Of a DNA stretch of 64,000 nucleotides, positions 33,176 to 62,853 are shown one piece after another (positions within the stretch are counted from its first letter, which is position 1; each line of letters starts with the position of its first letter). The stretch comes from a virus (Duplodnaviria > Caudoviricetes): IMG/VR virus record IMGVR_UViG_3300025867_000005; one strand, written 5' to 3'. Made by a program: the position numbers and the translations under genes. A model generated the notes under the pieces. That model was not told the origin of the DNA. It made no database searches and was given only the letters and a program-made list of their open reading frames with translations.

Positions 33176-34633
33176 ATGAACATTGAAAGAATGGCGAAAC
33201 AAATTATTTCTTCATTTGCAGAGAAGGAAGCTGAACGCTTTTTCAGATCCTATTTGCCAAAGACCTCTTGGAAGAACCACGTTTTTTCAGTTGGTGGTTA
33301 TGTCAGAGATGAAATTTTGGGTTTGGATGCCAAAGACCTAGACGTTGTGATCGACATTAAAGGCGGGCCAGAAAAGCTTACCAAACAACTTCACGCCCTG
33401 TTTTCAAAGGAAACGACATTCCCAGTGAACATGGGCAATTATCCGATATGGCAAATCACCTTTAAGGAAGACATAATTTGGGAAGGAGAAACTTTCAGGA
33501 CGAAAGGTGCCGTAATTGAATTCGCGGAAACCATGAAGGAAAGTTATCCCGATCCCAACAGCAGACAGAGAAGCACGGAATTCGCGGATTTGGATTCTGA
33601 TGTGAAACGTCGTGATTTTACAACAAACATGATGATGAAGGATTTGAGTAACGGCGAATTTATAGACCTCACTGGCGTCAGCAAATCAGACATTCAAAAA
33701 GGTGTTTTGAGAGGTCATCCTGATGTTGATTTCAACATGATTCTTAACCAAGATCCGTTGCGTATGATGAGACTCGTCAGATTCGCATGTAAATACGGAT
33801 GGACTGTGCCTCTTTCTGTTTTGAAAGCCGTTAAGGCTAATGCCGCAAGGATTCAGACGATTTCTGAAGAACGGATTCGGGATGAACTCATTAAGATAAT
33901 GAAACTCGGCAAGCTTCAAAAAGCGATCAAATTCTTTGATGCCACAGGACTTTTGAAATTTATCTTCCCAGAGATCGAAGCATTGAAGGGAGTGAAACAG
34001 AATGAAATCCATCATTCCGAAGGTGATACTTTTAAGCACACAATGATGGTTTTGCAGAATTCCAAGCCTGGTATTGAAAGCCAATTGTCTGCTTTGCTTC
34101 ATGATGCCGGTAAGGCTTCAACGACGGAATTGATTAACGGTGCTATTCATAGTTACGGTCATGAAAAGGTAAGTGGAGAAATAGCAGAAGCTGTGTGCAG
34201 GCGGCTCAAATTCGATACCGGAGTTATCCACAATGTCAGGAAAATCGTAGAGAACCATATGCGTCCACACGCACTTAAGGATGCCGGGACGGCAGGAATA
34301 CGGAAATTCATACGGGAAGTCGGGGATGAGATTGTAGATGCCGTAATTGATTTAGCAAGAGCCGATGAAATCGGAAAGCTGCCTAAAGGTGACAATATTC
34401 CATCTCTTATGAAAAAGGTGGAAGAAGTGAGGAAAATCAAGCCTGTCAAGAAGAATGATTCCATACTTAACGGTATCGAAATCATGAAGATTCTGAATAT
34501 CAAGCCGAGTGCCAAAATCAAAGAGATTATGTCCTTTCTTGAAGGGAAAGAAGACGAATATCTTGAAAAAGGCAAAGTCCTTGATAAAGAAACGGCTGAA
34601 AAACTTATCCTTGAAAAATTCAAAGGAGTGTAA
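33176..34633 (+). CDS. cca: CCA-adding enzyme (class II tRNA nucleotidyltransferase) with HD domain
   Basis: VGGYVRD, DLD, RRDFT.N, DPLRMMRLVRF, ERIRDEL, LLHDAGK; no poly(A) polymerase G[RK]RF signature. Confidence 0.85.
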   Translation: MNIERMAKQIISSFAEKEAERFFRSYLPKTSWKNHVFSVGGYVRDEILGLDAKDLDVVIDIKGGPEKLTKQLHALFSKETTFPVNMGNYPIWQITFKEDIIWEGETFRTKGAVIEFAETMKESYPDPNSRQRSTEFADLDSDVKRRDFTTNMMMKDLSNGEFIDLTGVSKSDIQKGVLRGHPDVDFNMILNQDPLRMMRLVRFACKYGWTVPLSVLKAVKANAARIQTISEERIRDELIKIMKLGKLQKAIKFFDATGLLKFIFPEIEALKGVKQNEIHHSEGDTFKHTMMVLQNSKPGIESQLSALLHDAGKASTTELINGAIHSYGHEKVSGEIAEAVCRRLKFDTGVIHNVRKIVENHMRPHALKDAGTAGIRKFIREVGDEIVDAVIDLARADEIGKLPKGDNIPSLMKKVEEVRKIKPVKKNDSILNGIEIMKILNIKPSAKIKEIMSFLEGKEDEYLEKGKVLDKETAEKLILEKFKGV

Positions 34634-34634
34634 A

Positions 34635-34856
34635 ATGGAAGACAACATGGAAGCGGTGGAACGGACAGATGAAAATATTGCAAACCTTTGGGGCATCTTT
34701 TCAGAAATGCTGAAAGACGCTTCTGCTTTCAATGCCGTCAATGTGCCGCAGCAGGCGGCGAAAGACAGAATGATTGAAATCCTTACACAGGCCATGTATC
34801 CTTATCTTGAAGAATATGCACAATGTACGCACGTCTTTGAACAAGGTACGGAATAG
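34635..34856 (+). CDS. Hypothetical protein
   Basis: SD AAGGAG, ATG at 34635. Confidence 0.55.
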   Translation: MEDNMEAVERTDENIANLWGIFSEMLKDASAFNAVNVPQQAAKDRMIEILTQAMYPYLEEYAQCTHVFEQGTE

Positions 34857-34884
34857 TTTTTGATATTCCTACCTGTTTTATAGG
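34856..34884 (+). promoter_or_regulatory. Putative late promoter
   Basis: TTTTTGATA-N13-TATAGG, matching the 24688 copy including the downstream TAAA. Confidence 0.6.
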
Positions 34885-34904
34885 TAAACAGAGAGGAAAT
34901 CAGA

Positions 34905-35288
34905 ATGTCAACTGTAATTAAAACGCATGAAATCAGCCACGGGCAGATGACTAATCCCGGACGTGTGTATTGGGAACCTGGGAAAAGGGATGTGGATTCA
35001 GATCCCAGAGAAGGAATAATGTATCGTGACGTGCATGTCCCTTGTCCGAATCCCGTAGTCGAAACCTTATCAAGAAACGGTTTTGGAAATATCCATACCT
35101 GCATTGATAATGGAACTGGAGTCTTGACGGCACAAAGCATCCCTGAACCTGTTGTTACCAAAACATCTGTAATTACCATCGTCGAAGCTGGCGTGGAAGG
35201 TACTCACGTTTTGAAAGAAACGGAACTAACAAATGTCAATGATATCGCCAAAACAGCAGGTGGATGGGGCTTTGAAGAAGAACCGTAA
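34905..35288 (+). CDS. Hypothetical protein
   Basis: SD GAGG upstream. Confidence 0.6.
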   Translation: MSTVIKTHEISHGQMTNPGRVYWEPGKRDVDSDPREGIMYRDVHVPCPNPVVETLSRNGFGNIHTCIDNGTGVLTAQSIPEPVVTKTSVITIVEAGVEGTHVLKETELTNVNDIAKTAGGWGFEEEP

Positions 35289-37617: not shown

Positions 37618-37662
37618 ATTTTGATAATCCACTGAAAGGATAGTTGAAACATGAGGTGCAAT

Positions 37663-38463
37663 ATGGTAGAAAGAAGGTCATCAGTAGACAGATTTCTCAA
37701 AAAGTTTTCAGAAACTTTGGGCTTTGGACTTAACGATTTGGTAAGCTATGCCCCGACAGGACATAAGGTAATCGGGATAGTAGTAGATATCGATCCTAAG
37801 ATTAGGAAGATTTATGTTGATTGGGGTGGCTGTGGCAATATCCATCAACACGATCCGGAAGAATTGCAGATTACCATGCTTCAGGAAAAGGCTGTTAAGA
37901 ATAAGATGGCAAGTGTCAAAATCAAGAAAATCACGGCAGCGATGGTCGGAGACATAAGTACTACGGATTTCATCGATCCTGTTACTTCTGATTTATTGAA
38001 CAAGCAGTTCGCCGCAGAGCTTTCAAATTCAGCTTTTTACCGTTGTTGCGCATCTTGGTTTGGGAATAACGGCTATCCTGGCTTTGAAGCCTATTTCCTG
38101 CGTCAAGGAGACGGTGAAGCAGAACATGCGATGAAAGTCTATACCTTCTTGGCAGAAGCCGGTATACGCGTTGTATTCCCTGTTATCAACGATCAACAGA
38201 TTGCCACGGATTTGAAATCCATCATCAAACAGACATTGGTTAAAGAAACGGAAACCACAAAGAATTGGCAGATCATTTCCAAATCGGCAGAAACAGGAAA
38301 CAATGTTGCGGTAACGGAACTTTGCCAGTGGTTCATGAAGGAACAGATGGAAGAAGAATCAAGCATCACAACCCTTTATCAGAAAGTCATGAATCTTCCT
38401 CTTAGTGGCGGTTTGGAAACAATCGACATGCTTTTGAGAGAAAAAGATCCTATCGTAAAATAA
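37663..38463 (+). CDS. Ferritin (FtnA-like) fused to an N-terminal beta domain
   Basis: LNKQFAAELSNSAFY, GYPGFEAYF, EAEHAMK, KETET, WFMKEQMEEE (ferroxidase ligands). Confidence 0.8.
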   Translation: MVERRSSVDRFLKKFSETLGFGLNDLVSYAPTGHKVIGIVVDIDPKIRKIYVDWGGCGNIHQHDPEELQITMLQEKAVKNKMASVKIKKITAAMVGDISTTDFIDPVTSDLLNKQFAAELSNSAFYRCCASWFGNNGYPGFEAYFLRQGDGEAEHAMKVYTFLAEAGIRVVFPVINDQQIATDLKSIIKQTLVKETETTKNWQIISKSAETGNNVAVTELCQWFMKEQMEEESSITTLYQKVMNLPLSGGLETIDMLLREKDPIVK

Positions 38464-38476: not shown

Positions 38477-38743
38477 ATGGATATCCGCAAAGAACTTCTT
38501 TTTGTCGCCAAACTGATCAAAGCAAAGCCTGAGTACGAATACGCTTGGGACCCTGACCATAAGAATAAACCAAAAGGGGAAGGCTGGGAACAGACAGATG
38601 CCGGTTGGTCTAGGAATACGGGCAAAGAAGAAAAACCAGAAAAGTATTGGGAAGGGAAGAATAAAGAAGGCGAATACTATTACGATACCATTGAATCAGA
38701 AGGGGACGAAGGCGAAAAAGAAGAAGTACAGGATGAAGAATAA
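38477..38743 (+). CDS. Leader-family protein (leader + DPxH module)
   Basis: MDIRKELLFVAKLIKA then YAWDPDHKNKPKGEGWEQTDAGWS. Confidence 0.7.
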   Translation: MDIRKELLFVAKLIKAKPEYEYAWDPDHKNKPKGEGWEQTDAGWSRNTGKEEKPEKYWEGKNKEGEYYYDTIESEGDEGEKEEVQDEE

Positions 38744-38757
38744 GGAGTAATAAATAC

Positions 38758-40422
38758 ATGAATTTCGAAGCGATGATTTCCAAATTGGCGAATGATATTA
38801 TAACAGCAGAAACTAATTATGTCTGGGACCCGGAGCATAAGAAAAATCCAGGCAGCGGTTATCAGAAAACCGATAAGGGCTGGTCTAAATCAGACGGGAA
38901 AGGGGAAATAACGAAGACGCAACAGAAGAAGGTTCCTTCAGCCCCTGTGAAGCCGACTTCGACTCCTGATGTTTCAGGACATCCTGATATTCTAAAGTCT
39001 AAATCAGGAAAGCAAATCCCGAATAACAAAGACATTCTTGATGTCATTTACAACAACTATAACGATTTCAGCGAAGCAGAAAAAAACAACCTTTTGTCTT
39101 TTTATCGCCAAAAAGCGGATGCCTTGAGTGCTGAAGCGAAGAAACACTACAGTCACCCAGAAGTGTTCAAGAACCTTATCGGTCTAAATAATGAAACTCT
39201 TGATATCATAGAACTCCTGAAGAGCAAAGAAGGATATGATCAAAAGGGGAAAGACATAGAATTAACCAACAGGGTAATAGCCGCTAAAAACTCCAAGGAT
39301 TTCAAGATGGCACTTGGCAAGGTATCTAGCGCCTTCCCTGACTATACGACAGAAGAGGCAACAGTCAATTTCTTGTCGAACCCGAAGATGGCGAAGAATC
39401 TTAAAACTGAAGAACGCAAGGCTCTTCAGGAATACTTTGAAGCAAACAAGTCTGCTTTTGAAAATGAACTAAGTAAGGAACACAAGAATCTTCTAAAAGA
39501 CGGAAAAGGTGATAAGAAAACGATTGGATATCTTTCTGATGGAATCAAGGAATTTGATAAAGTCCTTTCACGGTTGTCTCCACTCTATCCTTCGTATCAA
39601 AAGCTTACGGATATGAAGAAATCAGGGCCGTTTCAGAAAGTCTATCAGTTTGTCAAGAATGTAAAGCCTGGTCCTGTTGCTGAACAAGAATTTATTGATG
39701 TCTTGGGAGAACCGACACATCTTAACACACTGACTTCAGAAGAGAAAAAGGCAATCTCCGATTTCTTCCAAATGAAGAAACAACTTTGGGCAGCCGACGC
39801 GAAGAAAAATCCCGATCTTCAAACTCTTGCAGAAGACGGTATCAAGAAGATGGATCAAATTATTTCCCTTGTCAATCCAAATACAAACAAGAAGGCACCT
39901 GACCCGTCTCAAGTTATGTCTCGTCTTTTCAAAGAACCGGAAATGATAAGTGTCGCTGATAAACCGAAGGTTATCCAGACGTATAAAAATTGGCTTGCAG
40001 CAAATAAGGATAAGAAGGACAAAGATACACAGGCTAAGGTTTCGGACGTAAGGCTTGCTGTCAAGATGTTGGAAGGCCCACGCTTCAAAAAAGTAGACCC
40101 GAAGCTTTCAGGAAACCTTATGTATCTTGTCAAAGACAATGACCTCGGGGATGAATTGCAGGAACTCGCTGGCTTTAAGGAAACCATCAAGAATCATCCT
40201 CAAATGTCTAACAAGGAATACAAGCAGAGGATAGATCAAGGAATGAAGCTTCCTAGAAGTCAGGCACAGCTTAAACAGGCTTTCATCATGAATATGAACC
40301 CGATGAACTACCCGGACATGCAGGCTTTCCAAGCCGCGAAACAAAGGGTTCAGAAAATGGATATCAATGATTTCGGTAAGCTTTTGGCAAGCCTTAACGC
40401 GGATGAAGAAGAAACGATTTAA
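38758..40422 (+). CDS. Leader-family protein, large helical cargo
   Basis: MNFEAMISKLANDIITA then YVWDPEHKKNPGSGYQKTDKGWS; has the C-terminal helical module. Confidence 0.7.
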   Translation: MNFEAMISKLANDIITAETNYVWDPEHKKNPGSGYQKTDKGWSKSDGKGEITKTQQKKVPSAPVKPTSTPDVSGHPDILKSKSGKQIPNNKDILDVIYNNYNDFSEAEKNNLLSFYRQKADALSAEAKKHYSHPEVFKNLIGLNNETLDIIELLKSKEGYDQKGKDIELTNRVIAAKNSKDFKMALGKVSSAFPDYTTEEATVNFLSNPKMAKNLKTEERKALQEYFEANKSAFENELSKEHKNLLKDGKGDKKTIGYLSDGIKEFDKVLSRLSPLYPSYQKLTDMKKSGPFQKVYQFVKNVKPGPVAEQEFIDVLGEPTHLNTLTSEEKKAISDFFQMKKQLWAADAKKNPDLQTLAEDGIKKMDQIISLVNPNTNKKAPDPSQVMSRLFKEPEMISVADKPKVIQTYKNWLAANKDKKDKDTQAKVSDVRLAVKMLEGPRFKKVDPKLSGNLMYLVKDNDLGDELQELAGFKETIKNHPQMSNKEYKQRIDQGMKLPRSQAQLKQAFIMNMNPMNYPDMQAFQAAKQRVQKMDINDFGKLLASLNADEEETI

Positions 40423-40434
40423 AGGAGTACTGAA

Positions 40435-41292
40435 GTGAACTACAAATCAGAAATTTCAAAAATAGCAAAAATCATTATCGCAGATTCTGATTATGTTTAT
40501 GACCCCGAACATAAGAATAATCCTGGTGGTGGTTATCATCGTACAGAAAAGGGTTGGTCTAAACAAGACTGGAATGGGCAGACAGAAGTTTCTCCTGAAT
40601 CCGGTTCTTCTAAAAAAGAACCATTAAAAATAGACAACTGGGACCCAGCCGTATATGGAGGGTTTTGGGGATCATGGAATTCCACGCCAGCAGCAAGACA
40701 TTTTTTAGAATTCGGTGACGAAAGCGTTGTCAAAGATGAAAAATTCTATGATGAACTTTTTAACGGAAAACTTGGAATTAAAGAACTGCTAAAGAGAGTG
40801 GGAGATAGTTTGCAAGGGAAAGGTGAATATACAGAATTTGGATACACAAAGAAAGACATGATCGACTTGGGACAATTCGCCCTTTATGCTGCAAACAAAG
40901 CCCGCAAAGACGGTATCGACATCGACAAAATCGTATACGGCAAATCGGCCAATCCGGAAAAGAAACCAGAGACTTTTTCGGAAGAAAAGAAAATGAAATT
41001 GGTAAGGGAAATGCCGGGATATTGGTCGGGTTTGAACAAGCTTCAAAGGAACCGTTTAAGTTGGGATGACTTCCATACAAGAGTGATGGATAAATCTATT
41101 GACTTGACTTCAGAGGAAGCACTCTCGATGGCGGCGGTATTGAAGATAAAACAAGATTCTGCATTGAAACTCGCTGAATCTTATAAGAAAAGTGATAGTC
41201 CATTTGCAGGACGGGCAAGGATGATGTCAGAAAGAGAAGCAGAAAAACTTGGCGGGTATGCTGAAGACTTCAACAAGATTGCAAATCAATAA
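40435..41292 (+). CDS. Leader-family protein
   Basis: MNYKSEISKIAKIIIA then YVYDPEHKNNPGGGYHRTEKGWS. Confidence 0.7.
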   Translation: MNYKSEISKIAKIIIADSDYVYDPEHKNNPGGGYHRTEKGWSKQDWNGQTEVSPESGSSKKEPLKIDNWDPAVYGGFWGSWNSTPAARHFLEFGDESVVKDEKFYDELFNGKLGIKELLKRVGDSLQGKGEYTEFGYTKKDMIDLGQFALYAANKARKDGIDIDKIVYGKSANPEKKPETFSEEKKMKLVREMPGYWSGLNKLQRNRLSWDDFHTRVMDKSIDLTSEEALSMAAVLKIKQDSALKLAESYKKSDSPFAGRARMMSEREAEKLGGYAEDFNKIANQ

Positions 41293-41304
41293 GGAATAAC
41301 TGTC

Positions 41305-42171
41305 ATGTATTTCTGTAAAGCACCAAGGATTTATGTTTTAACGCGAAAGGAAAAAGAAACAGGGGTTTATGTCTGCCCCTTTTGCGGGAAAGTTTTGAAG
41401 AAAGGTTCTCTTTCGAAATCTGAAAAGCTTTTTCAATGTCGTACATGCGGGTTCAAGATAACGGGTAGAGACATCTTATCGGAATATCCGAATCAGAAAG
41501 TAAGTATTGACATTGGCATTGAAATTCAGAAGGTCGCAAAGGTCATTGTTTCAGAGACGAAAGAAGAAAAGGACCCATTTGGATTCGCCAAAAGCAAAGC
41601 CCATCAAATTTTTGAAAAAGCCAAAAAAGCAGACAACAACGTTTCTCAATGGGAAATCACGACAGAGAAGCAATCACCAGAATTATACAAGTTCAATGCC
41701 TTCCCACGGAAATCTGGAAATGATGCTGTTATTGCTATCGAAGTGACTAAAAGAAACCAAAATCTTTTAGGTAAAGAGATAGAATCTGTTACCTTTTCCA
41801 TTTTAGTAAAAGGCGGAAAAGAAGTTTTTAGCATACAGACTTCCAATATTTATGCGGTAAAATCACTTTTCGACAAAATTCTGAGGAAAGATTTCACGGA
41901 ATTTTTCTCTACGAAAACTGACAACAAGATGACGGAAGTCAAGAATTTCATCAAATCCAAGTTTCATCTTACCCCAGATGAAGAAGACAGTGATAGCCTT
42001 CATTACGCGACAAGAGATCACGGAGATGTAGAAGAAGAGACTCCGGGTAAAGAAGACATCCAGCTTATCAAGCAGGTCATTTCGGGAGTCAAGGCGAAAT
42101 TCAAAAACTTGGTATTGCGTCCAGAAATCGTAGATGAATGGGTACAGCTTGAAATAAAATTAGAAGGTTGA
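41305..42171 (+). CDS. Zn-ribbon protein with internal leader motif
   Basis: CPFCG...CRTCG followed by IDIGIEIQKVAKVIVSE. Confidence 0.65.
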   Translation: MYFCKAPRIYVLTRKEKETGVYVCPFCGKVLKKGSLSKSEKLFQCRTCGFKITGRDILSEYPNQKVSIDIGIEIQKVAKVIVSETKEEKDPFGFAKSKAHQIFEKAKKADNNVSQWEITTEKQSPELYKFNAFPRKSGNDAVIAIEVTKRNQNLLGKEIESVTFSILVKGGKEVFSIQTSNIYAVKSLFDKILRKDFTEFFSTKTDNKMTEVKNFIKSKFHLTPDEEDSDSLHYATRDHGDVEEETPGKEDIQLIKQVISGVKAKFKNLVLRPEIVDEWVQLEIKLEG

Positions 42172-42219
42172 TTGCCTATAAAATTTGATAACCTTACGTA
42201 TACCTAAACAAGAGGTTAT

Positions 42220-43218
42220 ATGAACACGAACAATTTTCCAAGGCATTTATCTGTAAAGAACAGAGAAACACTCCTTCATCCAGGCAGTGGGATTAAAGTT
42301 CAGAATGTCAAAATTCTAACGAATCCACGATATGAATGGGAAAGAATATGCAGGGGACGTACAAGAATCGCCCACAGCATTGATATCGACTGGAAGCGTT
42401 TCAACCTGAATGACTATATCTTCACACATGACTCCATCGTGTCGAGCGTAGAAACAGAAGCCAACGGATATTATATCAAGCCCATCTGTTCGAAGATCGT
42501 CAATTTAAACGGCAACGCGTGGACAAATCCCGTTCTTCTAGCGACATTCCGTACTTTCGTAGGTGGTTATAATTTCGAAGAACATGTTCAAATCCCAAGC
42601 CAAAGCAAAGGAATGATTCTTGATGCCGTTCTTCGTCCTTTTCAATACAGGGATGAAAAAGGCAATATCGCCAATGTCTATATCTGTGACATCCTCGTTG
42701 CCACATGTAAAAGCAATTGGGAACTGGTACAGGAAATACAAACAGGAAAGATGAGAACCTTGTCGATGGGAACCCAGTGCCGTTCCGTCCAATGTAGCCA
42801 TTGCGGTAAGATATTCAGAGATGATGAAGACAGTTGCGATCATATAAAGTACGAACTCGGACAGATGTTTGTCGATGAAAACGGAATCGAACGCATTACT
42901 GCTGAACTCTGCGGTTGCAGCATTTGGGATGCAATAAAGAAAGAATGGATAGGAGATCCGGAATCCAACACCTTTATTGAAGCCAGTTGGGTTAAACATC
43001 CCGCATATGTAGGAGCCGTTGTAAACCATTTCATCAATCCGAAGAATGTAAATCCTTCACTGTTTAAAGAAGCGTCTATCGAAGAATCCATTCAGGGATT
43101 GTTCAATGTCCGGGTTGCTGACAGATATGGGAGGTTGTCTTTGAATCTTCTCAGACAGAAACAGGAGATTGACAAAAGGGAAGGAATGATAAACAGAATC
43201 ATTTCGTCAAAGCATTAG
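42220..43218 (+). CDS. Prohead protease with Zn-finger insertion
   Basis: N.NGNAW, FEEH, KGMILDA, IQTGKMRTLSMG (catalytic Ser), CSHCG..CDH, FIEASWVKHPA. Confidence 0.8.
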   Translation: MNTNNFPRHLSVKNRETLLHPGSGIKVQNVKILTNPRYEWERICRGRTRIAHSIDIDWKRFNLNDYIFTHDSIVSSVETEANGYYIKPICSKIVNLNGNAWTNPVLLATFRTFVGGYNFEEHVQIPSQSKGMILDAVLRPFQYRDEKGNIANVYICDILVATCKSNWELVQEIQTGKMRTLSMGTQCRSVQCSHCGKIFRDDEDSCDHIKYELGQMFVDENGIERITAELCGCSIWDAIKKEWIGDPESNTFIEASWVKHPAYVGAVVNHFINPKNVNPSLFKEASIEESIQGLFNVRVADRYGRLSLNLLRQKQEIDKREGMINRIISSKH

Positions 43219-43227
43219 GAGACAGAT

Positions 43228-43758
43228 ATGAACAGTAAAGACTTGACAAGGATAGCAAAACTTCTTATCGCGGATTACCGTTATGATCCTCGCCATGAAA
43301 ACAAACCACAGGGTCTAGGCTGGAAACAGACAGAAGGCGGATGGACGAACGTGTTGCACAGGATTAAGAAGACGGAACCGAAGGAAGTTGAACAAGAATC
43401 GGATGTCCCTGAAATAAAGGTCAAGAATTCCCCAGTCCCAGAAGTTTCTGAAAACAAAAAGAGGTTGTCTGTTCTGTTGGGGCAGGCCGGAACAAAAGGA
43501 TTGCTTGACAGAGATACGGAAGGTAAGGCTATAGTAGAACAGAAGGACATCGACAGGATTAATTCAATGCTTTATAAGTCAAGAGGGAATAGAGACAAGG
43601 TAAGAATGTATGTCGAAAATATGTCAAGCGCAATCACTAATCCTAAGAAAGCTGTTCGTAGAGGTCTTGCGGCTTTCCACGGATTGAAAGATGAATTCGG
43701 CAAAGAATTCGCTTGGGAAATGGCTTCAGTTTTCGTCGGCAAAGGATTAAGCCTGTAG
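43228..43758 (+). CDS. Leader-family protein
   Basis: MNSKDLTRIAKLLIA then YRYDPRHENKPQGLGWKQTEGGWT. Confidence 0.7.
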   Translation: MNSKDLTRIAKLLIADYRYDPRHENKPQGLGWKQTEGGWTNVLHRIKKTEPKEVEQESDVPEIKVKNSPVPEVSENKKRLSVLLGQAGTKGLLDRDTEGKAIVEQKDIDRINSMLYKSRGNRDKVRMYVENMSSAITNPKKAVRRGLAAFHGLKDEFGKEFAWEMASVFVGKGLSL

Positions 43759-45671: not shown

Positions 45672-46160
45672 ATGTTACAGTATCTTATTCGTTCACAGAA
45701 TGATGCTATCAAGGTATTGGCCGCATCCTGCTTCACAAAGCAGAACTATGCCGTCGATTACGTCAATGATACCATCTCAAACCTTACGCCTAACGGTGTA
45801 TTGGGTGGTTCCGTTGCTGCATTGAGCGCGGATTACACAGTTGTTGCCGGTAACGGCGTAAACACTCCTATCGGCTTGTTCGTAAATGACGCGGCCGGTA
45901 TGGCATGGGAAAACAACCAGGCAAAGGCTTCAAACAAACTCACCATCGCTAAAGGCTTGCCTTCAGTCGAAGTTGACGTTTATGAGACTCACGACATGTA
46001 TGGTAGTGAACTTACCTACGTGATCGGTGACAAGCTTTATTGCTCAGCAAACGGTTTCCTCACCAATGAGGAAAGTGCGGAAGGTACGGTTATCGGTATC
46101 CTCACAAAGGTTCCGGTTCTTCCAGGCAGCCCGGCAATGGGCGTCGATTTGCGCATCTAA
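45672..46160 (+). CDS. Head decoration/cement protein
   Basis: Directly upstream of MCP; PIGLF, YVIGDKLYCSANGFLT, VIGILTKVP. Confidence 0.65.
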   Translation: MLQYLIRSQNDAIKVLAASCFTKQNYAVDYVNDTISNLTPNGVLGGSVAALSADYTVVAGNGVNTPIGLFVNDAAGMAWENNQAKASNKLTIAKGLPSVEVDVYETHDMYGSELTYVIGDKLYCSANGFLTNEESAEGTVIGILTKVPVLPGSPAMGVDLRI

Positions 46161-46186: not shown

Positions 46187-47047
46187 ATGGATATCTCAAC
46201 AGCTTCAAAGTATCAGACCATCGCTAAGTACATCAAGACTGGCGAAGGCCGTTCCCGTATCGCGGCAAGCTTCACGCAGCCCCTGCGTCAGCGTCGTGAC
46301 TATCAGAGCGTCGGTCGTAGAGCCTTCTACGTCGAACAGCTTCTTGACGGTCAGCTCCCGATTTGGGATAAGGATGCCAATGTAACGGCATATGTCATCG
46401 GTGCGGAAGGACAGAACATCCAGTGTGTTCAGAAACCACCGCGTGTTTTCTTCGACTTGTTCGAAATCGCTTCAAATCCTGAAATCTCCATCACAACGAT
46501 CCGTGAAAAGCGCTTCGATGTTTTGGAACGTTCCCTTGACCTCGCCCGTAGCGCGATCATGGCACAGGAAGACCGCTATGTGTTCGCCACAATGGACGCT
46601 TTGGCGGCATCTGCTACCAACCCGAATCCGGTTATCCAGGTCATTGGTAACTTGACTTCTAACGTTTTGATTGACGCGAAAGCGGCTGTCGAACGTAACG
46701 ATATCAGGGTAGCGAATATCTTCATGAACGCAAAGGATTACAACGATCTTTTGAAGTTCGACCGTGACACCCTCAGCCCTGAGTACCAGACTCAGTTGCT
46801 TAAGAACGGCCTCATGGCCAACATCTGGGGAATCAACATCATCGTAAGCCGTATCGTCGCAGAAGGCGATGTCTATGTCTGCGGTGAACCGGAATTCTTC
46901 GGACGTATCCCCGTTCGTCAGGACCTCACCGTCCTTTCAGCGGATGATCCTCGTAACCGCATGGTCGGCTTCTCGGTCTTCGAAATGATCGGTTGCGGCT
47001 TGTGGAATCCGTTGGCAATGAGCAAGATTCAGATTACCCGCGTGTAA
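46187..47047 (+). CDS. Major capsid protein (HK97 fold)
   Basis: RIAASFTQPLRQRRDY, FEIASNP, IMAQED, IFMN..DYNDL, IWGINIIVS; followed by a strong terminator. Confidence 0.85.
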   Translation: MDISTASKYQTIAKYIKTGEGRSRIAASFTQPLRQRRDYQSVGRRAFYVEQLLDGQLPIWDKDANVTAYVIGAEGQNIQCVQKPPRVFFDLFEIASNPEISITTIREKRFDVLERSLDLARSAIMAQEDRYVFATMDALAASATNPNPVIQVIGNLTSNVLIDAKAAVERNDIRVANIFMNAKDYNDLLKFDRDTLSPEYQTQLLKNGLMANIWGINIIVSRIVAEGDVYVCGEPEFFGRIPVRQDLTVLSADDPRNRMVGFSVFEMIGCGLWNPLAMSKIQITRV

Positions 47048-50764: not shown

Positions 50765-52495
50765 ATGTCGGAATCCATTTTTTTGAAAATATCTAAAATC
50801 GCCAAATTTCTTTCAGCCGATGGGAAATGGGTAAAGTTTAATTCAAAGTCTCAGAAGCAGGGTTGGAAAAGGAAGAAAGACGGCGGAGGATTTGAATACC
50901 GCTATCAAGACAACGATCCTAACAAAGAAAATAGTTCTGTTGAAAAAAAAGCAATTGAAGACTTAAAGAAAACTAGTGTATTCCGGGATATTGATAATTT
51001 CGGAGAAATTATTGATTCTAAACCAACAGGTAAAAAAGGTATATATCAAGTCACAATAAAACGGGGTTATAAAGAGAAATATGAAGTTGAAACTTCAGAT
51101 TCGGAACTTGGAGTCATGGGGATTAAGAACAAAATACTTGCCAATAGACTGTATAAAACAGCGAACGTTCTTCTCGGACCCGTCTTTCTTTCAGAATTCC
51201 AAGGGAAGCCAGCGATTTTCACAGAGAAGGAGGATACCAGCCTTGACACTCCTGAACTTAAAGAAAATGCTATCGAAACGTCATTCGGTGAAAACTTCCG
51301 TAAAGGATTTATTATTGACGTTTTGCTTGGTAACAATAACGTTCTTGGAAACAATTTCCAAAACGTAGAGATTGTTGGTGGTGTAGTCAGAAGGGATAAC
51401 AAACACACATTGCTATTCAGGGAAGGGGGTATTGACAGTCTTTCAGATCAAGCCGTAGAACTGTATGATTTCAGGGACAAAAACAAATACCCGCAGTTGG
51501 CAAAATTCTATTCAAAGATCAGAGATGATGAAATCATAAAGCAGATTTCAAAAACGGCGATAGCTCTGAATGATGATGTCTTAGCAGACATTGTTACAGA
51601 AATGTTCCCGTCTCCAGAAGAATCAGAGATAGCCAAAAAGTTAATAGATAAGCTAATCAAAAGAAAAAAATATTTGTTGGACTTTGCGAAAGTCAAGGCT
51701 GTTGAGATGATACAGGAAAAGGTTCTTAAGAGAAAGGAGAAATACATTGTCGGACCCGGTATTGTGGAAGAAAAGACGATGACGACAGCAGAAGCAAAGT
51801 CAATCCGCAACTATTCTGATACTGATTATATGCCTATAAACAAATATCTTCGTGGAGAATTAAATCATAATGAGATAAAGGAAACGCCATTTGAAACAGA
51901 AGTCGGAATCAAGGATGCTTGCAAGACGCTAGTTCAGGCTTTGCAGAAACTACCGGCACATGAAGGAATCGTTTATAGAGGTTCTGAAGTAGATGAAGCC
52001 AGCCTCATTTCCATTATGGGGATGAAGCCAGGTGATTCAATCTATATGAAGTCTTTCACCTCAACAAGTAAATCAGAATCTAACGCATTAGAATTCAGTA
52101 CTGATGTTTTGTTTGAAATCGAAAGTCGTACCGGTAGAGACATTTCACATATGAGTGAATATCCTACAGAAGAAGAAGTCATTATGTCACCTGATACTAG
52201 ATATGAAGTGAAGTCAATGGAGTTCGAACAAGAATATATCCGCCTGAAGCTCAAAGAACTTCTCCCAGAAGAAGGTAAAACAAGGTTGTCCGTCAACCTT
52301 AAGAAGAACAAAAAGATGGACCCGAATGAAGTCAGAAAGTTCCTTTTGAAGAATCCGAAGCTTACACGGAAACAACGTGAACGTATTATGCGGCTTAATC
52401 CGGATCAATTGATTAAAATCATTCTGGCAATATTCTCCAAGAAAGGCAACAAGGTAAAAGAAGAATCTAACAAGTTTACAGAAATCTTCATTTAG
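50765..52495 (+). CDS. Leader-family ADP-ribosyltransferase (VIP2/exoenzyme-like) with degenerate kinase-like domain
   Basis: INKYLRG, VYRG, SFTSTS, EEEVI (R-S-ExE); leader KISKIAKFLSA. Confidence 0.85.
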   Translation: MSESIFLKISKIAKFLSADGKWVKFNSKSQKQGWKRKKDGGGFEYRYQDNDPNKENSSVEKKAIEDLKKTSVFRDIDNFGEIIDSKPTGKKGIYQVTIKRGYKEKYEVETSDSELGVMGIKNKILANRLYKTANVLLGPVFLSEFQGKPAIFTEKEDTSLDTPELKENAIETSFGENFRKGFIIDVLLGNNNVLGNNFQNVEIVGGVVRRDNKHTLLFREGGIDSLSDQAVELYDFRDKNKYPQLAKFYSKIRDDEIIKQISKTAIALNDDVLADIVTEMFPSPEESEIAKKLIDKLIKRKKYLLDFAKVKAVEMIQEKVLKRKEKYIVGPGIVEEKTMTTAEAKSIRNYSDTDYMPINKYLRGELNHNEIKETPFETEVGIKDACKTLVQALQKLPAHEGIVYRGSEVDEASLISIMGMKPGDSIYMKSFTSTSKSESNALEFSTDVLFEIESRTGRDISHMSEYPTEEEVIMSPDTRYEVKSMEFEQEYIRLKLKELLPEEGKTRLSVNLKKNKKMDPNEVRKFLLKNPKLTRKQRERIMRLNPDQLIKIILAIFSKKGNKVKEESNKFTEIFI

Positions 52496-53017: not shown

Positions 53018-54766
53018 ATGTTTTTAACACAATGTCTTATCAAAATCGCCAAAATAATCATTTCAGATGAGAAATGGGTCAAGTTTGAATCCGATTCAGA
53101 AAAACAGGGATGGAAGAGAAAAAAACCTGAAGGAGGGTATGAATACCGATATCAAGAGAAAGACCCTAACTTAGAGACGACTAAAGAAAAAACGGAAGGA
53201 CTGCCCAAAGAAATAGCAGAACTTGAATCTTTAAGAGCGATTCCAAAGTATGTCGGGGATGAATGGTTTCACAATATTAAAAGCGTTGATAAATTAGGTG
53301 GCAGCACCGGCGCTGTGAAGGTTGTGACAGAAAATACCTTCGGAACCGTAAATGAAATGGTCGTGAAAACATATGAAAACAATGGCGGCATTAATCAGAT
53401 CAAGAACGAATATCTTGCCAACAGTCTTTATCGTCAGTTAAATGTCAGTGTTCCAGAGACATATGTCGGATATTACAAAGGCAAACCCGCTCTAATCACG
53501 AAGTTTTTGCATGGTAAAGAAGCGCAAATAGAAAACGATAGAGGCATTCTCAAAGGATTCGTTGCTGACGCCTGGCTTGCCAACTGGGATTCTATAGGGC
53601 TGTCTGGAGATAACGTGTTGTATTCCTTCGGCAACACGTATAGAATCGATAATGGCGGTGCGTTGCTGTTTCGGGCACAAGGAGAACCAAAGGGTAACGC
53701 TTTTGGGGATGAAGTAACAGAACTTGATAGCCTTAGAAGTCCTGAAATTAATGTGATGACAGCAAAAGCTTTTGATCAGATAAAAGATTCTGACATCATG
53801 AAACAAGCAATGGAACTTGAAATAAAGATGACAGATGAAAAAATCAGGTCAGTGGTAGAATCTGTCTATAATTCAGATCAAGAAGCGGACTTTGCTAAGA
53901 AACTTTCTGATAGACTGATCAATCGTAAAAAATACATTATTTCTTACGCTAAAAAGTTGGCGATTAAGCGGATTCAAGACAATGTCTTGAAAAGAGAAGC
54001 CCGTTATGTCGTCGGAGAACCGAGTGGAAAAAAGATAACTGTCACTGATAATAAAACAATAAGAGACTATACATCATTAGGTTTCATGGAAATAAACAAG
54101 TATTTGAGAGGAAAAATAGATGATCCTTCAGATGAACCCAAATTTCGTAAAAAAGCCTCTAATCTTGTTACAAGTTTGAAAAAACTACAACCTTATACCG
54201 GTAAGGTTTATCGCGGATCTCACTTGGATGACGCGACAAAACTCGTTATGGCGACAATGAAGCCAGGTGATTTGATTTACATGAAGGCGTTCACTTCTAC
54301 TAGTAAATCAGCATCAAAAGCGGAGCAATTCACTTCAGATGTAAATTTTGAAATCGAAAGTCTAACGGGAAGAGAAGTAGTTGCTTATAGTAAGTATCCT
54401 ACAGAAGAAGAAGTTATTATGTCGCCTGATACCAGATATGAAATCACAGATATTCAAATAACCCCAGATCCGTATTTGGGAAATGCGTTAATCAGAATCA
54501 AGATGAAGGAATTACTTCCTGCACAGAGAGAGACAAAGCTTCCTGTTAACATGAGGAAGAAAGAACCTTCCGCGAATGATTTAAAGGATTTTCTTTTGAA
54601 GAATCCAAAACTTACGCAGAAACAAAGAGAAAGGATTATGCGCCTTCCTCTTGAAGACTTGAAGAAACTTGTTCTTATGATGTTCGCACACGGGAAGAGA
54701 AACCGTGTCGTCAACGATGATGTTACAGAAGAACAAAGCGGAAAGTTCACAGAAGTTTTTATTTAA
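53018..54766 (+). CDS. Leader-family kinase-like (HipA/CtkA/PI3-4K-like) + ADP-ribosyltransferase fusion
   Basis: Kinase part: LGGSTGA, VVK, NEYLAN, DAWLANWD, N, RIDNG. ART part: VYRG, AFTSTS, EEEVI. Leader LIKIAKIIIS. Confidence 0.85.
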   Translation: MFLTQCLIKIAKIIISDEKWVKFESDSEKQGWKRKKPEGGYEYRYQEKDPNLETTKEKTEGLPKEIAELESLRAIPKYVGDEWFHNIKSVDKLGGSTGAVKVVTENTFGTVNEMVVKTYENNGGINQIKNEYLANSLYRQLNVSVPETYVGYYKGKPALITKFLHGKEAQIENDRGILKGFVADAWLANWDSIGLSGDNVLYSFGNTYRIDNGGALLFRAQGEPKGNAFGDEVTELDSLRSPEINVMTAKAFDQIKDSDIMKQAMELEIKMTDEKIRSVVESVYNSDQEADFAKKLSDRLINRKKYIISYAKKLAIKRIQDNVLKREARYVVGEPSGKKITVTDNKTIRDYTSLGFMEINKYLRGKIDDPSDEPKFRKKASNLVTSLKKLQPYTGKVYRGSHLDDATKLVMATMKPGDLIYMKAFTSTSKSASKAEQFTSDVNFEIESLTGREVVAYSKYPTEEEVIMSPDTRYEITDIQITPDPYLGNALIRIKMKELLPAQRETKLPVNMRKKEPSANDLKDFLLKNPKLTQKQRERIMRLPLEDLKKLVLMMFAHGKRNRVVNDDVTEEQSGKFTEVFI

Positions 54767-54808: not shown

Positions 54809-56737
54809 ATGGATACCAAAATGAAAGAAGCAATCACTTCACTTATTAAAAACCGCAGGTTTCAAAACTGGTGCTTGATTATATTGGCATCTGTTGTCGC
54901 GTATATCACGGGCAAACGGATTCTCAAATATTACGGTGTTCGTCCTAGCAAAAAGGATAAAAGAGATTTTGGAATTTCTATGGCCGAAAATCCAGCCAGA
55001 TTCCAGAATTCTTTCTGCCTTCCATTGCCGGTATTAAAGAATCAGCAAACGGTTTCAAGTTGTCATGACGATCAAACTGAGGTTATGACGAGATATGGAT
55101 GGAAATTCTTTAAAGAAATATCTTCTAGTGATTTATTAGCAAGTGTAAATCCAGAAGACGGAAACCTAATTTTTGAAAATCCTATCAATATATTGCGTCA
55201 AAGGTATATTGGTAAAATGATATATGGTACACATAGAAGTATTGATTTTATGGTTACACCGAACCATAAAATGATTGTAAAGAAATGGGAAGAAAGTAAA
55301 AGGGTTCTTTCTGAAAAATATTCGGTAGTAGATGCATCCGATCTTGGATTTTGTGTAGGACTTAGAACGGATTTCTATCAAAACAAAAAAAAGCAAGAAG
55401 TTATTATTTTACCAGAAGAAAAGGTGTCTAACGGGAATATCCTTCCGAGGATGGAAATAAAACTTTCTGATTGGGTTAAATTTTTAGGGATATATTTAGC
55501 AGAAGGTACGATGCTTGATCCTTCTCGCCATTATCCCATTCAGATAGCGGCCTTTAAAAACCGAGAGCGTTCATTTGTGGAAAATTTGTTTAACAGGATG
55601 GGAATTCACGGAGTGTCTTCTAAAGATCGTTATGTTGTTTCAAATAAAAGAATATGGTCTTTGTTGTCTGGATATGGTCTTTATAAGGTAAAATCATATG
55701 ATAAGTTTGTCCCTGATTTTATTTTCGATCTTGATTCTGAATTGATTAAAGATTTTCTTTATGGTTTCGCGATGGGAGATGGGTATTTCACCAAAGAAGG
55801 AGAAGTCCGTTATTATACATCTTCGAAGCTTCTGGCAGAACAATTAAGAATGTTGATGGTTATGAGTGGAAGTTCCACCACAATGTATACGAGGGATGTT
55901 CGTGGTAAAAAATGTTTTCTTAAAGACGGAAGGACTATCATTTCTAAACATATTGGATATGTTATAAACCAATGGAAAACGAATAGTTTAGGGCTAAACA
56001 GAAAAAAAAATATAAAAGAAGTTGACTATGATGGATATGTATATTGTGCTGAAGTACCAACATATCATACTCTTATTACAAGAAGAAATGGGAAAGTCCT
56101 ACTTTCCGGCAACTGCTGCGCACACAGCATGTCTTATATCGCGGAATCCATATTGCCGAAATCAGGAGATTATAACCTCGATAGGGTAAGCGTAGGCTGG
56201 ATATACGGCTACCGCCCAGCAGGTTATTATCAGGGAGAAGGAATGTATCCTCGGCAGGCTCTTAATACGATTCAGAAAAAAGGCGTCATCAGGCATAGGG
56301 ATTTCCCCTATAACGAAGAAGTCCCGGCCGTCATTAACCGAGTCAACGGAAGTCTGGATGATTTACTGAAGAAGGCGGAACCCAATAAGATACCGGTATT
56401 CTTCCAGTTGAAGACCGATGATGAAATCAAACAGTGCCTTACAAAATACGGACCTGTTTCTATTATGTATCCAGTTTACGATTCTTTCAATACTCCTGTT
56501 GAAGGGAAAATTGAAACAGCAAGAGGTAAGTTTTACGGATATCATCAAGTTACGCTTTACGGATGGACAGGGGATTGTTGGCTGATGGTAAACAATTGGG
56601 GCAACTGGGATGAAGACGGAATCGCATATATCCATAAATCTTATCCTTGGCAAGAAGCATGGGGACTTTCGGTTGATCCTTCAGCAGCGATAGAACCTCA
56701 AAAAAAAACTTCTTTTCTAAAATCGTTATTTGGATAA
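54809..56737 (+). CDS. Membrane-anchored papain-like (C1) cysteine peptidase, intein-containing
   Basis: NQQTVSS|intein|CCAHS, YHQV (His), NNWG (Asn), GIAYI. Confidence 0.85.
   Translation: MDTKMKEAITSLIKNRRFQNWCLIILASVVAYITGKRILKYYGVRPSKKDKRDFGISMAENPARFQNSFCLPLPVLKNQQTVSSCHDDQTEVMTRYGWKFFKEISSSDLLASVNPEDGNLIFENPINILRQRYIGKMIYGTHRSIDFMVTPNHKMIVKKWEESKRVLSEKYSVVDASDLGFCVGLRTDFYQNKKKQEVIILPEEKVSNGNILPRMEIKLSDWVKFLGIYLAEGTMLDPSRHYPIQIAAFKNRERSFVENLFNRMGIHGVSSKDRYVVSNKRIWSLLSGYGLYKVKSYDKFVPDFIFDLDSELIKDFLYGFAMGDGYFTKEGEVRYYTSSKLLAEQLRMLMVMSGSSTTMYTRDVRGKKCFLKDGRTIISKHIGYVINQWKTNSLGLNRKKNIKEVDYDGYVYCAEVPTYHTLITRRNGKVLLSGNCCAHSMSYIAESILPKSGDYNLDRVSVGWIYGYRPAGYYQGEGMYPRQALNTIQKKGVIRHRDFPYNEEVPAVINRVNGSLDDLLKKAEPNKIPVFFQLKTDDEIKQCLTKYGPVSIMYPVYDSFNTPVEGKIETARGKFYGYHQVTLYGWTGDCWLMVNNWGNWDEDGIAYIHKSYPWQEAWGLSVDPSAAIEPQKKTSFLKSLFG
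55061..56113 (+). mobile_element. Intein with LAGLIDADG homing endonuclease (351 aa)
   Basis: Block A CHDDQTEVMT..GWK, block B VTPNH, FLGIYLAEG and FLYGFAMGDG, block F VYCAEVP, block G RRNGKVLLSGN|C. Confidence 0.9.
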
Positions 56738-58807: not shown

Positions 58808-59164
58808 ATGGACTACAAAACAGAATTGATGAAAATAGCGAAACTGATTAAGGCTGAAGAAACAGGAATTGAATATACCGAGAAGAATAGCAAAGATCAC
58901 AATTTCAAATACAAGGCAGATACGATCAGGGTTTACGACAATCCTAATCAGTTAAAGCGTTTTACCGCCGTTATTACCGGTAGGGAATGGGATGAGCCTG
59001 GAAGTACCGACAAGTCTCTAATTCGGTTTGACATGAATGGTAAGACGGTTTTCGCTACTGGCAAGGAAGATCAGAAGCTTGGTAAACCCGTGGCTTGGAA
59101 AAGCATCCCTGCGGCGGTACAGAAGAAAGTTTTAAATCAGCTATCCGGCAAATGGGAAGAATAA
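58808..59164 (+). CDS. Leader-family protein
   Basis: Starts MDYKTELMKIAKLIKA. Confidence 0.7.
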   Translation: MDYKTELMKIAKLIKAEETGIEYTEKNSKDHNFKYKADTIRVYDNPNQLKRFTAVITGREWDEPGSTDKSLIRFDMNGKTVFATGKEDQKLGKPVAWKSIPAAVQKKVLNQLSGKWEE

Positions 59165-61448: not shown

Positions 61449-61451
61449 ACA

Positions 61452-61709
61452 ATGAATACCGAAAGCCACAAAGGAACATCAAAGACATATCGGACCTCTG
61501 ATTTATATCTGAGTGCGTTCCTTTGTGCTTCGGATGTCTTCCTTCAGGGAACTGAAAAGAAACTTGATGGGAAGATCATCTTCTTATTCCTGATTGATGA
61601 AGATAATCTTGAAAGACAGAAGGAGTTGTTCTATAACGGTCGCGGCATGGTTAGTGCCGCCAAGTTCGTAGATTGTATACGAAGGCTGAAAGGTATTTGC
61701 CATAACTGA
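61452..61709 (+). CDS. DUF5659-like small protein
   Basis: YRTSDLYLSAFL....IIFLF...FYNG...VSA..F....LK. Confidence 0.55.
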   Translation: MNTESHKGTSKTYRTSDLYLSAFLCASDVFLQGTEKKLDGKIIFLFLIDEDNLERQKELFYNGRGMVSAAKFVDCIRRLKGICHN

Positions 61710-61757
61710 TAAGTTTTGATAATGAAAACCCTGTATATGGAACAGAGGTTTTAGTCT

Positions 61758-62591
61758 ATGGCAAATTACCCTTCGACATATATCCCGACAGGCACGCTCG
61801 CGTCAGACAGGGCAAACGCGATTATCGATGATTTTCTTACCCCGAAACTTCTTCGTTTCAGGCAGATAGAAGTCAGTGATGAACCTTTACGGCTTGACAG
61901 TGACAGGAAGACGTGGCTTTTAGCTTTCGGAAACATTCTTGAAACCGCACCGATTAAGATCGTCCGTGCCGGTGAAAAGATGATGCCTTCTTCTTTTGAG
62001 CTTGATGCCGAAATGGGAAAGCTTACATTCCTAGATGTCAATACGAGTTTCCAGATAGTTTCAGGGACAGACCTTATCGACACGGTAGATGCGATAGGGA
62101 ATCCGTTAATCGACGTTACGGCAAGTTATAGCTTTGACTATTTCCCTTCGGAAGTGCTTTACGGATTCATCGTGTCTTCAGTCAATGTTATCAATTCCGC
62201 CGGGCAAGACAGTTCTCCTACTTACTACACAGTTGAAAACTGTCCAGATTATTGGGCAGGTGTCATAACTGATTTGGCTTTCGCCCAATGCATGGAACGT
62301 CTGTTATTGGATTACGATTTGTGGAAAGGGAGATTGATTTTCGCGATAGGCGCAGACATGCTTCTTGAAGGACAGGGTGGTGATATCGTATCTCAGCTTA
62401 CGACATTGAAACAGAACGCAGAAGATCGTGCTTACAAGACAATAGACAATCCTGTCTTCAAGGCTGGAGGACGTTTATTGGCTTATCCGACAAACTATTA
62501 TTGGAGAGCGGTTTCTGGTGTCGGGACATCAGGGACAATGAATGTCGGAGGAAGGTTAAGAGGATGGCGGGTCAACAGACTCGGGAGATAA
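61758..62591 (+). CDS. Putative neck/head-tail structural protein
   Basis: Follows the late motif; FELDAEMGKLTF...VTASYSF beta module plus a helical adaptor-like part. Confidence 0.5.
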   Translation: MANYPSTYIPTGTLASDRANAIIDDFLTPKLLRFRQIEVSDEPLRLDSDRKTWLLAFGNILETAPIKIVRAGEKMMPSSFELDAEMGKLTFLDVNTSFQIVSGTDLIDTVDAIGNPLIDVTASYSFDYFPSEVLYGFIVSSVNVINSAGQDSSPTYYTVENCPDYWAGVITDLAFAQCMERLLLDYDLWKGRLIFAIGADMLLEGQGGDIVSQLTTLKQNAEDRAYKTIDNPVFKAGGRLLAYPTNYYWRAVSGVGTSGTMNVGGRLRGWRVNRLGR

Positions 62592-62592
62592 A

Positions 62593-62853
62593 ATGAATTT
62601 CAAACAAGAACTTTGCGGAATAGGGAAAATAATCAAAGAAGCAGGTTTCTTTGAAAGGATCAGAGAAGCGGCGATTAGTGTAAGTTCACACGTTACCGTT
62701 TCTAAGAATGATATCTGTAGGGAAAATGTACAGTATATCATCAAATGCGCTGCGGTTTCAGATTGTGAGAACATCAGGAAACGATTATCATCAATAGACG
62801 ACTTCAAGGTTGAAAAGCTTTCACAGGACATTCTTGGAGTCAGCAAAAAATAA
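62593..62853 (+). CDS. Small protein with leader-like N-terminus
   Basis: Starts MNFKQELCGIGKIIKEA. Confidence 0.55.
   Translation: MNFKQELCGIGKIIKEAGFFERIREAAISVSSHVTVSKNDICRENVQYIIKCAAVSDCENIRKRLSSIDDFKVEKLSQDILGVSKK

Follow-up and report, generated by a model that had tools for sequence, protein, structure and literature searches.

A shared N-terminal leader on head-region proteins of an uncultivated huge phage as a candidate capsid-targeting tag

We describe a short N-terminal leader peptide that is shared by the products of twelve genes of an uncultivated huge phage (Duplodnaviria; Caudoviricetes; IMG/VR record IMGVR_UViG_3300025867_000005) and that we are inclined to read as this lineage's own tag for capsid targeting or cargo loading, comparable to the capsid-targeting sequence (CTS) of T4 and the head signal of P1 DarB. 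The DNA analysed, called the window throughout, is a stretch of 64,000 nucleotides corresponding to bases 20571-84570 of a 304,025-bp source record that CheckV rates as complete; leftward genes fill its first 12 kb and rightward genes occupy it nearly throughout from about 14 kb. An earlier note on the window had proposed that about ten unrelated late proteins carry a common leader that addresses enzymes to the head for injection. It overlooked that the tag is clade-wide, that in many proteins it belongs to a two-part module, and that several of the tagged proteins are kin to one another. The points that can be tested computationally all fit an address tag for head-internal cargo, and its main value would lie in revealing which proteins a large uncultivated phage group probably injects.

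Distribution and anatomy of the leader

The 304-kb genome was scanned with a position matrix and then with hidden Markov models (HMMs) at 7,313 possible starts, on both strands, that open a reading frame (ORF) of at least 45 codons. Twelve leader genes were found, named here by the first base of the gene in the window. Ten had been pointed out before, and their N-termini are all present at the starts quoted for them (40435 begins with GTG); the other two, at genome positions 148162 and 213975, lie outside the window, so the tally of about ten holds for the window and becomes twelve for the whole genome. No minus-strand gene scores. Ten of the twelve fall inside a single block of 45 genes out of the 497 in the genome (hypergeometric p 8e-10), and this block also holds the portal, the prohead protease, a scaffold-like protein and the HK97-type capsid protein, which upholds the description of the tagged genes as surrounding these head genes.

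An independent HMM, built from the leaders of relatives only (G000, L003 and L004 were left out of its training), gives at least 8 bits to 38477, 40435, 43228, 53018, 58808, 148162 and 213975 and 7.2 bits to 50765; a score of 8 bits is attained by 1 of 1,883 internal windows. Lower scores under the same model fall to 38758 (4.7 bits), 62593 (4.1 bits) and 59608 (3.5 bits), and the lowest to the CCA-adding enzyme 33176 (below 2.8 bits, the lowest score listed). Membership of 38758 is backed by the GW module described below, which is common to it, 38477, 40435 and 43228, and that of 59608 by a first stretch of 17 nucleotides identical with that of 58808, whereas 62593 departs from the consensus chiefly by a Gly in place of the central Ala. 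We accept the leader of 33176 despite its weak score because an orthologue in locus L037, 53% identical, carries a better one: when its frame is extended upstream, it begins with a leader that scores 7.6 bits and is canonical by eye, followed by the same short acidic motif as in 33176. The weak leader previously suggested at 24734 reaches only 4.1 bits with the relatives-only HMM and was dropped. The internal copy reported in 41305 is present, with a position-specific matrix score of 12.1 at residue 73, and is retained in the L005 orthologue (internal HMM match of 10.3 bits).

The leader is not confined to this genome. A search with the capsid protein returned 1,324 homologues on contigs of up to 345 kb, and judged by this protein the phage is a member of a very large uncultivated group whose closest named relatives are all distant: LR745208 (56% identity), Tunturiibacter phage Tunturi_5 (43%) and Bacillus phage G (36%). 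No match to the head region came up when megablast was run on 50,697 phage records. Alignment of the capsid protein was used to fetch a related set of 80 IMG/VR loci, and tagged genes stand beside the head genes in this set too, with eight in L005, about 14 in L007 and several each in L024, L017, L018 and L043; the two kinds of gene are arranged alike in this genome, L005, L007 and the huge phage locus L087. When the 1,692 proteins of the genome and the 80 loci were scored over their full length at 10 bits or more, 50 matches began by residue 12 and three later. The earlier note had expected such a profile to be enriched at N-termini, and this is indeed where the matches concentrate; since each of the three later ones has a Met slightly upstream, they are probably miscalled starts. 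In a tiled control, 70 of 1,692 N-termini, 8 of 7,610 internal windows and none of the 1,692 reversed N-termini scored. The leader was not found within the 14-20 kb around the capsid genes of phage G, Tunturi_5 and LR745208 and would therefore be confined to a subclade with a capsid identity of roughly 59% or more. Phage G itself (L083, NC_023719) has several proteins, gp13, gp17, gp38 and more loosely gp9, gp10 and gp20, that start with a basic motif close to K-R-L-I-K-K, which may be a tag of its own; the published particle proteome of phage G (PMC12484599) contains no N-terminal data.

Across 63 distinct leaders the consensus is M-x(2-5)-[IV]-A-x-E-L-[LV]-[KR]-[ILV]-A-[KR]-x-[LI]-x-[ASG]. 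Of these leaders, 56 have the central Ala and 36 have a second Ala seven residues earlier; charged and hydrophobic positions alternate (E at -10, K/R at -7 and -4). The final position is A, S or G in 86%, and conservation stops sharply there, with no conserved residue beyond it and only an excess of D, E or G at +1 and +2. This bears out part of the claim that the leader ends in A or S followed by an acidic residue: the small residue is general, but D or E at +1 or +2, though in excess of the roughly 25% expected, occurs in 32 of the 63 leaders (8 of the 12 in this genome). The consensus contains no hydrophobic run of the kind found in Sec, Tat or lipoprotein signal peptides. No Pfam or PHROG family covers the leader or the GW module, and a Pfam search of ten N-terminal modules at E <= 5 gave chance-level matches only. 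Because codons vary among the copies and the upstream DNA is unlike, selection appears to act on the peptide and not on the DNA. An AlphaFold2 (AF2) model of residues 1-90 of 40435, computed from a 60-row alignment, places a helix at residues 3-16, then an extended stretch, a hairpin at 35-42 and coil. Its pLDDT (local confidence) is 92 over the first block of ten residues and its pTM (global confidence) 0.29, which suggests a peptide-like module outside any globular fold.

The GW module, the attached bodies and the neighbouring head genes

Beyond residue 20 the majority of the tagged proteins encoded here have nothing in common, as had been claimed, with two qualifications. The ADP-ribosyltransferases (ARTs) 50765 and 53018 are paralogues, 40% identical along their full length, and seven tagged proteins share about 30 further residues. 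In 38477, 38758, 40435 and 43228 these residues form what we call the GW module (within 38540-43350), some 25 residues with the pattern Y-x-[YW]-D-P-x-H-x(3)-P-x-G-x-G-[WY]-x(2)-T-x(2)-G-W; a variant of it occurs on both ARTs and on gene 148162. In the AF2 model the module takes the shape of a small hairpin. A profile of helix plus GW matched at least 312 clusters at E <= 0.001 among 1.84 billion representative proteins, in nearly all of which the module starts at residues 1-10 of proteins 56-1,466 residues long. Among the best 150 of these proteins, Pfam recognises LRV/HEAT repeats in 48, ART-PolyVal in three, PI3/PI4-kinase-like domains in two, SAM lyase in two, and phage lysozyme, topoisomerase I (IB) and RelA/SpoT in one each.

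The bodies behind the leader belong to separate Pfam families (ART, CCA-adding enzyme, DUF5661), besides many small basic proteins. 33176 matches Pfam PolyA_pol, PolyA_pol_RNAbd and HD and the PHROG for tRNA nucleotidyltransferase. 50765 matches Pfam ART and ADPrib_exo_Tox and a PHROG of virion structural proteins, and 53018 matches Pfam ART and PHROG 802, Alt-like ART (E 2e-6); the kinase label once given to 53018 is not reproduced by Pfam at E <= 0.01. The zinc-ribbon identity of 41305 comes from weak Pfam matches. The body of 38758 has no Pfam or PHROG match, and a search of the Atlas gave nothing usable. Tagged proteins in the related loci have a median length of 130 residues, a few of them with DUF7007, DUF7417 or ART domains, and the median isoelectric point of their bodies is 8.9 against 6.05 for other proteins (p 3.5e-6). 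In size and charge these small bodies are like the internal proteins (IPs) of T4.

The cargo region also changes quickly. In L004, whose capsid protein is 99% identical to that of our phage, the counterpart (3998-5158) of 38477-41292 is rearranged: one L004 gene joins a leader like that of 38477 and a pair of GW modules to the C-terminal half of 38758 (65% identity to part of this gene), and the body of 40435 has no counterpart there. Between the two phages, identity is just 76-80% for the protease and the scaffold-like protein. Such rapid turnover of the cargo region would be expected of injected counter-defence proteins.

Two further occurrences of the module concern its context. In L087 (ENA ERZ27297505, 304,015 bp, a different huge phage) helix plus GW begins genes of 376, 463 and 1,466 residues, and a 685-residue protein has the GW module with a short, near-absent leader; these genes adjoin genes for ADP-ribosylglycohydrolase, HD_4, WYL and WGR proteins just upstream of the head module. 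In the metagenomic proteins P0148 and P0245 the N-terminal domain of the ferritin-like protein 37651 stands ahead of helix plus GW.

Tagged genes and neighbouring head genes are listed in Table 1. The prohead protease 42220 has no Pfam match; Foldseek with its model against the PDB returned nothing at E <= 0.001, and phmmer against PDB sequences gave only chance zinc-finger matches. In an exhaustive VIA structure search its AF2 model (pTM 0.62) matched T4 gp21 best (5jbl_A; Z 7.8, rmsd 3.4 A, 137 of 165 residues aligned), followed by the proteases of varicella-zoster virus (Z 4.7) and human cytomegalovirus (Z 4.1), with unrelated folds at Z 3.6 or less. The last 45 residues of the protease, which has orthologues in about 30 loci, make up a helical tail that is strongly conserved and contains two R-V-A-[RK] half-motifs, and this could be the protease's own targeting tail.

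The protein 44000 has no Pfam or PHROG match, and its putative scaffold role follows from position and composition; its residues from about 135 to 270 are conserved in the gene immediately upstream of the capsid gene in about 40 relatives. The I-A-D ending of its N-terminus (44000-44050), which several leaders also show, is kept in L004 and L005. The capsid protein has an N-terminal arm (46187-46250) that is loosely leader-like, at a non-significant 4-5 bits or so. As candidate leader copies, the protease tail, the capsid N-terminus and the N-terminus of 44000 were rejected: they are alike by eye, and the HMM gives them at most 3 bits, about 5 bits and a below-threshold score, respectively. 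By position only, 45672 is possibly a decoration protein, and it occupies the same place as phage G gp26.

The ferritin-like protein 37651 is 92% identical in L004, and almost every relative conserves, directly ahead of the protease, the small domain made up by its first 110 residues or so. Two long ORFs are probably selfish elements of the head region: 47218-49152, immediately after the capsid gene (644 residues, LAGLIDADG and HNH endonuclease matches), and 54809-56737 (642 residues, a LAGLIDADG_3 match and a weak intein-splicing match). Between the capsid and ART genes, 49205-49747 has a SprT-like zinc metalloprotease domain (Pfam SprT-like, E 3e-5).

Table 1. Leader-bearing genes and head genes (window positions unless marked as genome; aa, amino acids)
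Position	Strand	Feature	Evidence or remark
27730-29514	+	large terminase	Pfam/PHROG searches
30002-32176	+	portal	Pfam/PHROG searches
33176-34633	+	CCA-adding enzyme/poly(A) polymerase family, 485 aa	degenerate leader, residues 1-13
37651-38463	+	ferritin-like (Ferritin/Dps-like) protein, untagged head-module neighbour	Pfam Ferritin, residues 114-245, E 6e-20
38477-38743	+	88 aa: leader, GW module, acidic tail	relatives-only HMM 17.3 bits
38758-40422	+	554 aa: weak leader, GW module, body without assigned function	
40435-41292	+	285 aa: leader, GW module, body without assigned function	GTG start
41305-42171	+	Zn-ribbon protein	internal leader-like helix near residue 73 (about 41521-41562)
42220-43218	+	prohead (head maturation) protease, T4 gp21/herpesvirus assemblin fold	phrog_18299, E 1e-12
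43228-43758	+	176 aa: leader, GW module	relatives-only HMM 10.6 bits; L004 orthologue 71% identical
44000-45520	+	acidic low-complexity scaffold-like protein, 506 aa	N-terminus leader-like by eye, ends I-A-D
45672-46160	+	conserved 162-aa protein, immediately upstream of capsid gene	96% identical in L004
46187-47047	+	HK97-fold major capsid protein, 286 aa	phrog_2522, E 5e-49; Pfam Phage_capsid
50765-52495	+	576 aa: leader, GW-like variant module, C-terminal ADP-ribosyltransferase domain	
53018-54766	+	582 aa: leader, GW-like variant module, C-terminal ADP-ribosyltransferase domain	
58808-59164	+	118 aa: leader, unassigned body	relatives-only HMM 14.8 bits; genome scan 19.5 bits
59608-59868	+	86 aa: diverged leader	genome scan 11.7 bits
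62593-62853	+	86 aa: leader with G for central A	genome scan 14.8 bits
genome 148162		230 aa: leader, GW variant module	outside window
genome 213975		129 aa, DUF5661: leader	outside window

Interpretation of the leader

We lean towards a model in which the leader is a capsid-targeting or cargo-loading tag. The earlier proposal of an address tag stands as regards the motif, its confinement to N-termini, its proximity to head genes and its modular fusion to different bodies, to which the spread across the clade and the presence of a gp21-fold protease can be added; a receptor, encapsidation, cleavage and injection are what we infer. One amphipathic helix, about 14 residues long and located at the very N-terminus, would dock onto the assembling prohead core by helix-helix packing, with the scaffold-like protein 44000 as the likeliest partner; its Ala-x6-Ala spacing, together with faces that alternate between charged and hydrophobic, suggests that it packs closely against this partner. 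Docking would co-assemble the variable small basic proteins and enzymes within the shell, the candidate cargo of this phage including the two ARTs and the CCA-adding enzyme, and this cargo would exit the head together with the DNA when a cell is infected. The neighbouring protease may remove the tag near its terminal small or acidic residue, which is plausible because a gene for a gp21-fold protease sits among the tagged genes. A cut right after A or S would be one option, and the analogy with gp21-type enzymes makes cleavage behind the next, acidic residue no less likely. About half of the leaders end in a small and an acidic residue, which would suit the gp21-type rule. A complex prediction of the capsid and scaffold-like proteins with the helix plus GW N-terminus gave 0.00, with controls absent, and speaks neither for nor against binding.

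Several observations weigh against an address tag for the head. Genes 148162 and 213975 sit among non-structural genes. The other half of the leaders lack an acidic residue at +1 or +2, and no uniform gp21-like cut site is evident. The cultured or published relatives that were checked, the three named above, do not have the leader near their head genes, and the tagged subclade has no cultured member, being known from sequence alone. Homogenisation of the leaders within a genome would be expected if they co-evolve with one receptor, and the effect is small: identity is 0.386 within genomes against 0.349 between them (permutation p 0.03). Finally, the GW module is found without the leader on three other proteins of the genome (genome 152735-155722, 178091-179089 and 209388-210248, in loci L090, L091 and L086), one of which bears a SAM-lyase domain.

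As GW is found apart from the leader, the two parts may have different roles. A more far-reaching idea, which we consider less likely than not, is that helix plus GW is a widespread portable two-part cargo-loading module of an uncultivated branch of phage-G-like huge phages. One part would address the prohead core; the other would be retained by the mature protein and might, for instance, keep it bound to the packaged DNA or set the order in which it exits. With such a module these phages would inject, as infection begins, a shuffled set of ARTs, SAM lyase, RelA/SpoT-like enzymes, topoisomerase IB, lysozyme and, which would be unusual, the CCA-adding tRNA-repair enzyme.

The alternative that survives best, unlikely as we consider it, is that the helix docks or oligomerises at a hub other than the capsid, be it a host target, the inner membrane or a cytoplasmic assembly of the phage, and that the proteins act in the cell without being packaged. 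An amphipathic helix with fixed Ala positions is typical of helix-helix contacts of any kind, and the two tagged genes outside the structural block would be in keeping with such a hub. The association with portal, protease, scaffold-like and capsid genes is nevertheless strong both here and in relatives, the strict N-terminal position and the sharp end of conservation recall known propeptides, and the bodies are basic and IP-like, with packaged precedents for the ART and lysozyme cargos. Should the tag dock elsewhere, it would still represent a new short helical docking motif, next to an uncurated GW module of about 25 residues.

Less probable again is a tag that is chiefly a signal for processing or turnover. 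It might be a common site recognised by the prohead protease or by another protease, or it might serve as an N-terminal degron or as a chaperone tag and so set when these proteins are active. The position of the gp21-fold protease gene amid the tagged genes and the enrichment of acidic residues right after the helix agree with this, and the propeptides of T4 also recruit chaperonins (PMC10052503). A helix of 14 residues, however, far exceeds the three-residue motif recognised by gp21-type proteases, and the acidic residue is missing from half of the leaders. Furthermore, the T4 peptide does both jobs, so that a processing signal overlaps with capsid targeting rather than replacing it.

Plain paralogy, in which one expanded family has kept its N-terminus by descent and the peptide has no address function, seems to us very improbable. 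It would account for the paralogous pair 50765 and 53018, for the identical first 17 nucleotides of 58808 and 59608 and for the GW module of seven proteins, but the bodies come from unrelated Pfam families and most lack detectable similarity, and descent alone leaves unexplained why just the first 17 residues or so are conserved. Moreover, the CCA-adding enzyme family retains the tag across 53% identity, and the composite L004 gene, with a leader like that of 38477 and the body of 38758, indicates that modules are shuffled. Chance resemblance, or a translated nucleotide-level element such as a repeated promoter, ribosome binding site or 5' cassette, has nothing in its favour beyond an AT-rich and Lys-rich composition and can be dismissed in view of the silent reversed N-termini, the large N-terminal excess, the unconserved upstream DNA and the varying codons.

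If the leader is indeed a head address, the proteins that a large uncultivated group of huge phages injects could be listed by a simple rule of sequence, which would supply a catalogue of candidate effectors of host takeover and counter-defence. A packaged CCA-adding enzyme would imply tRNA repair at the moment of entry. Cargo tagging in the manner of T4 would then be a recurrent solution of jumbo phages across very different head proteins and not a peculiarity of T4, and the leader, short and portable, could serve to bring foreign proteins into HK97-type shells, with at least 312 natural fusion contexts to draw on. That it is naturally fused to many unrelated domains would lend such loading indirect support.

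Comparison with known systems

The principle of cargo tagging is already known from T4 and P1, while the sequence described here is lineage-specific and undescribed in the literature that we found; a literature search by motif and concept returned no published description of the leader tag or of the GW module. In T4, IPI-III owe their affinity for the scaffolding core to an N-terminal CTS of ten residues, which gp21 subsequently cuts off, and the ART Alt is packaged likewise, with a gp21-cleaved N-terminal propeptide of seven residues (PMC9026906). Proteases of the gp21 type cut after a Glu that follows a short motif, the T4 CTS loads foreign proteins as well, and IP genes differ between close relatives (PMC9026906). 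Our phage resembles T4 in having a short N-terminal peptide on different small basic proteins and on an ART, in the location of these genes among the head genes, in the presence of a gp21-fold protease and in the poor conservation of the cargo genes between close relatives. It differs in that the leader is a helix of about 14-19 residues, against ten residues in T4, with no sequence similarity and no uniform (L/I)-x-E cut site, and in that packaging and cleavage are here putative. Neither the consensus nor the length of the leader agrees with the published description of the T4 IP and Alt propeptides, and we found no homology between them. Furthermore, this phage has an HK97-type capsid protein and is a distant relative of phage G and not of T4, up to about 14 tagged genes are found per 20 kb, and many of these carry the second, GW module.

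Capsid targeting in P1 requires no more of DarB than its first 30 residues (PMC9024508). The likeness is that of an N-terminal signal that sends an anti-restriction enzyme to the head; the Dar proteins, however, lack a common N-terminus, whereas here one consensus runs through many proteins and phages. The head and ejection proteins of phiKZ and SPN3US have propeptides that gp21-like proteases cut after [SAG]-x-E (PMC10052503, PMC5694885). These too are jumbo phages with many packaged proteins and a protease of the same fold class, and a small and then an acidic residue stand near the end of many leaders here, but their propeptides are long and are not one common short helix. As far as tested, the present clade is unrelated to the Chimalliviridae.

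Short terminal peptides that dock cargo inside an HK97-fold shell or its scaffold are also familiar from other settings. The HK97 maturation protease reportedly carries a C-terminal capsid-targeting tail (Duda, Oh and Hendrix, 2013), and in encapsulins a short terminal cargo-loading peptide docks the cargo inside an HK97-fold shell. Those peptides are C-terminal and of other sequence, and the binding of our leader to capsid or scaffold is putative. Finally, the concept of polyvalent proteins and MuF-linked toxins of phages, cited in PMC7824862, is close to the present case in that effector enzymes, among them ART domains, are packaged or injected, and ART-PolyVal is one of the domains found on the helix plus GW proteins (3 of the best 150). 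Our Pfam searches found no MuF domain. Those effectors are large multidomain fusions, often on a MuF head protein, whereas the tagged proteins described here are separate and mostly small.

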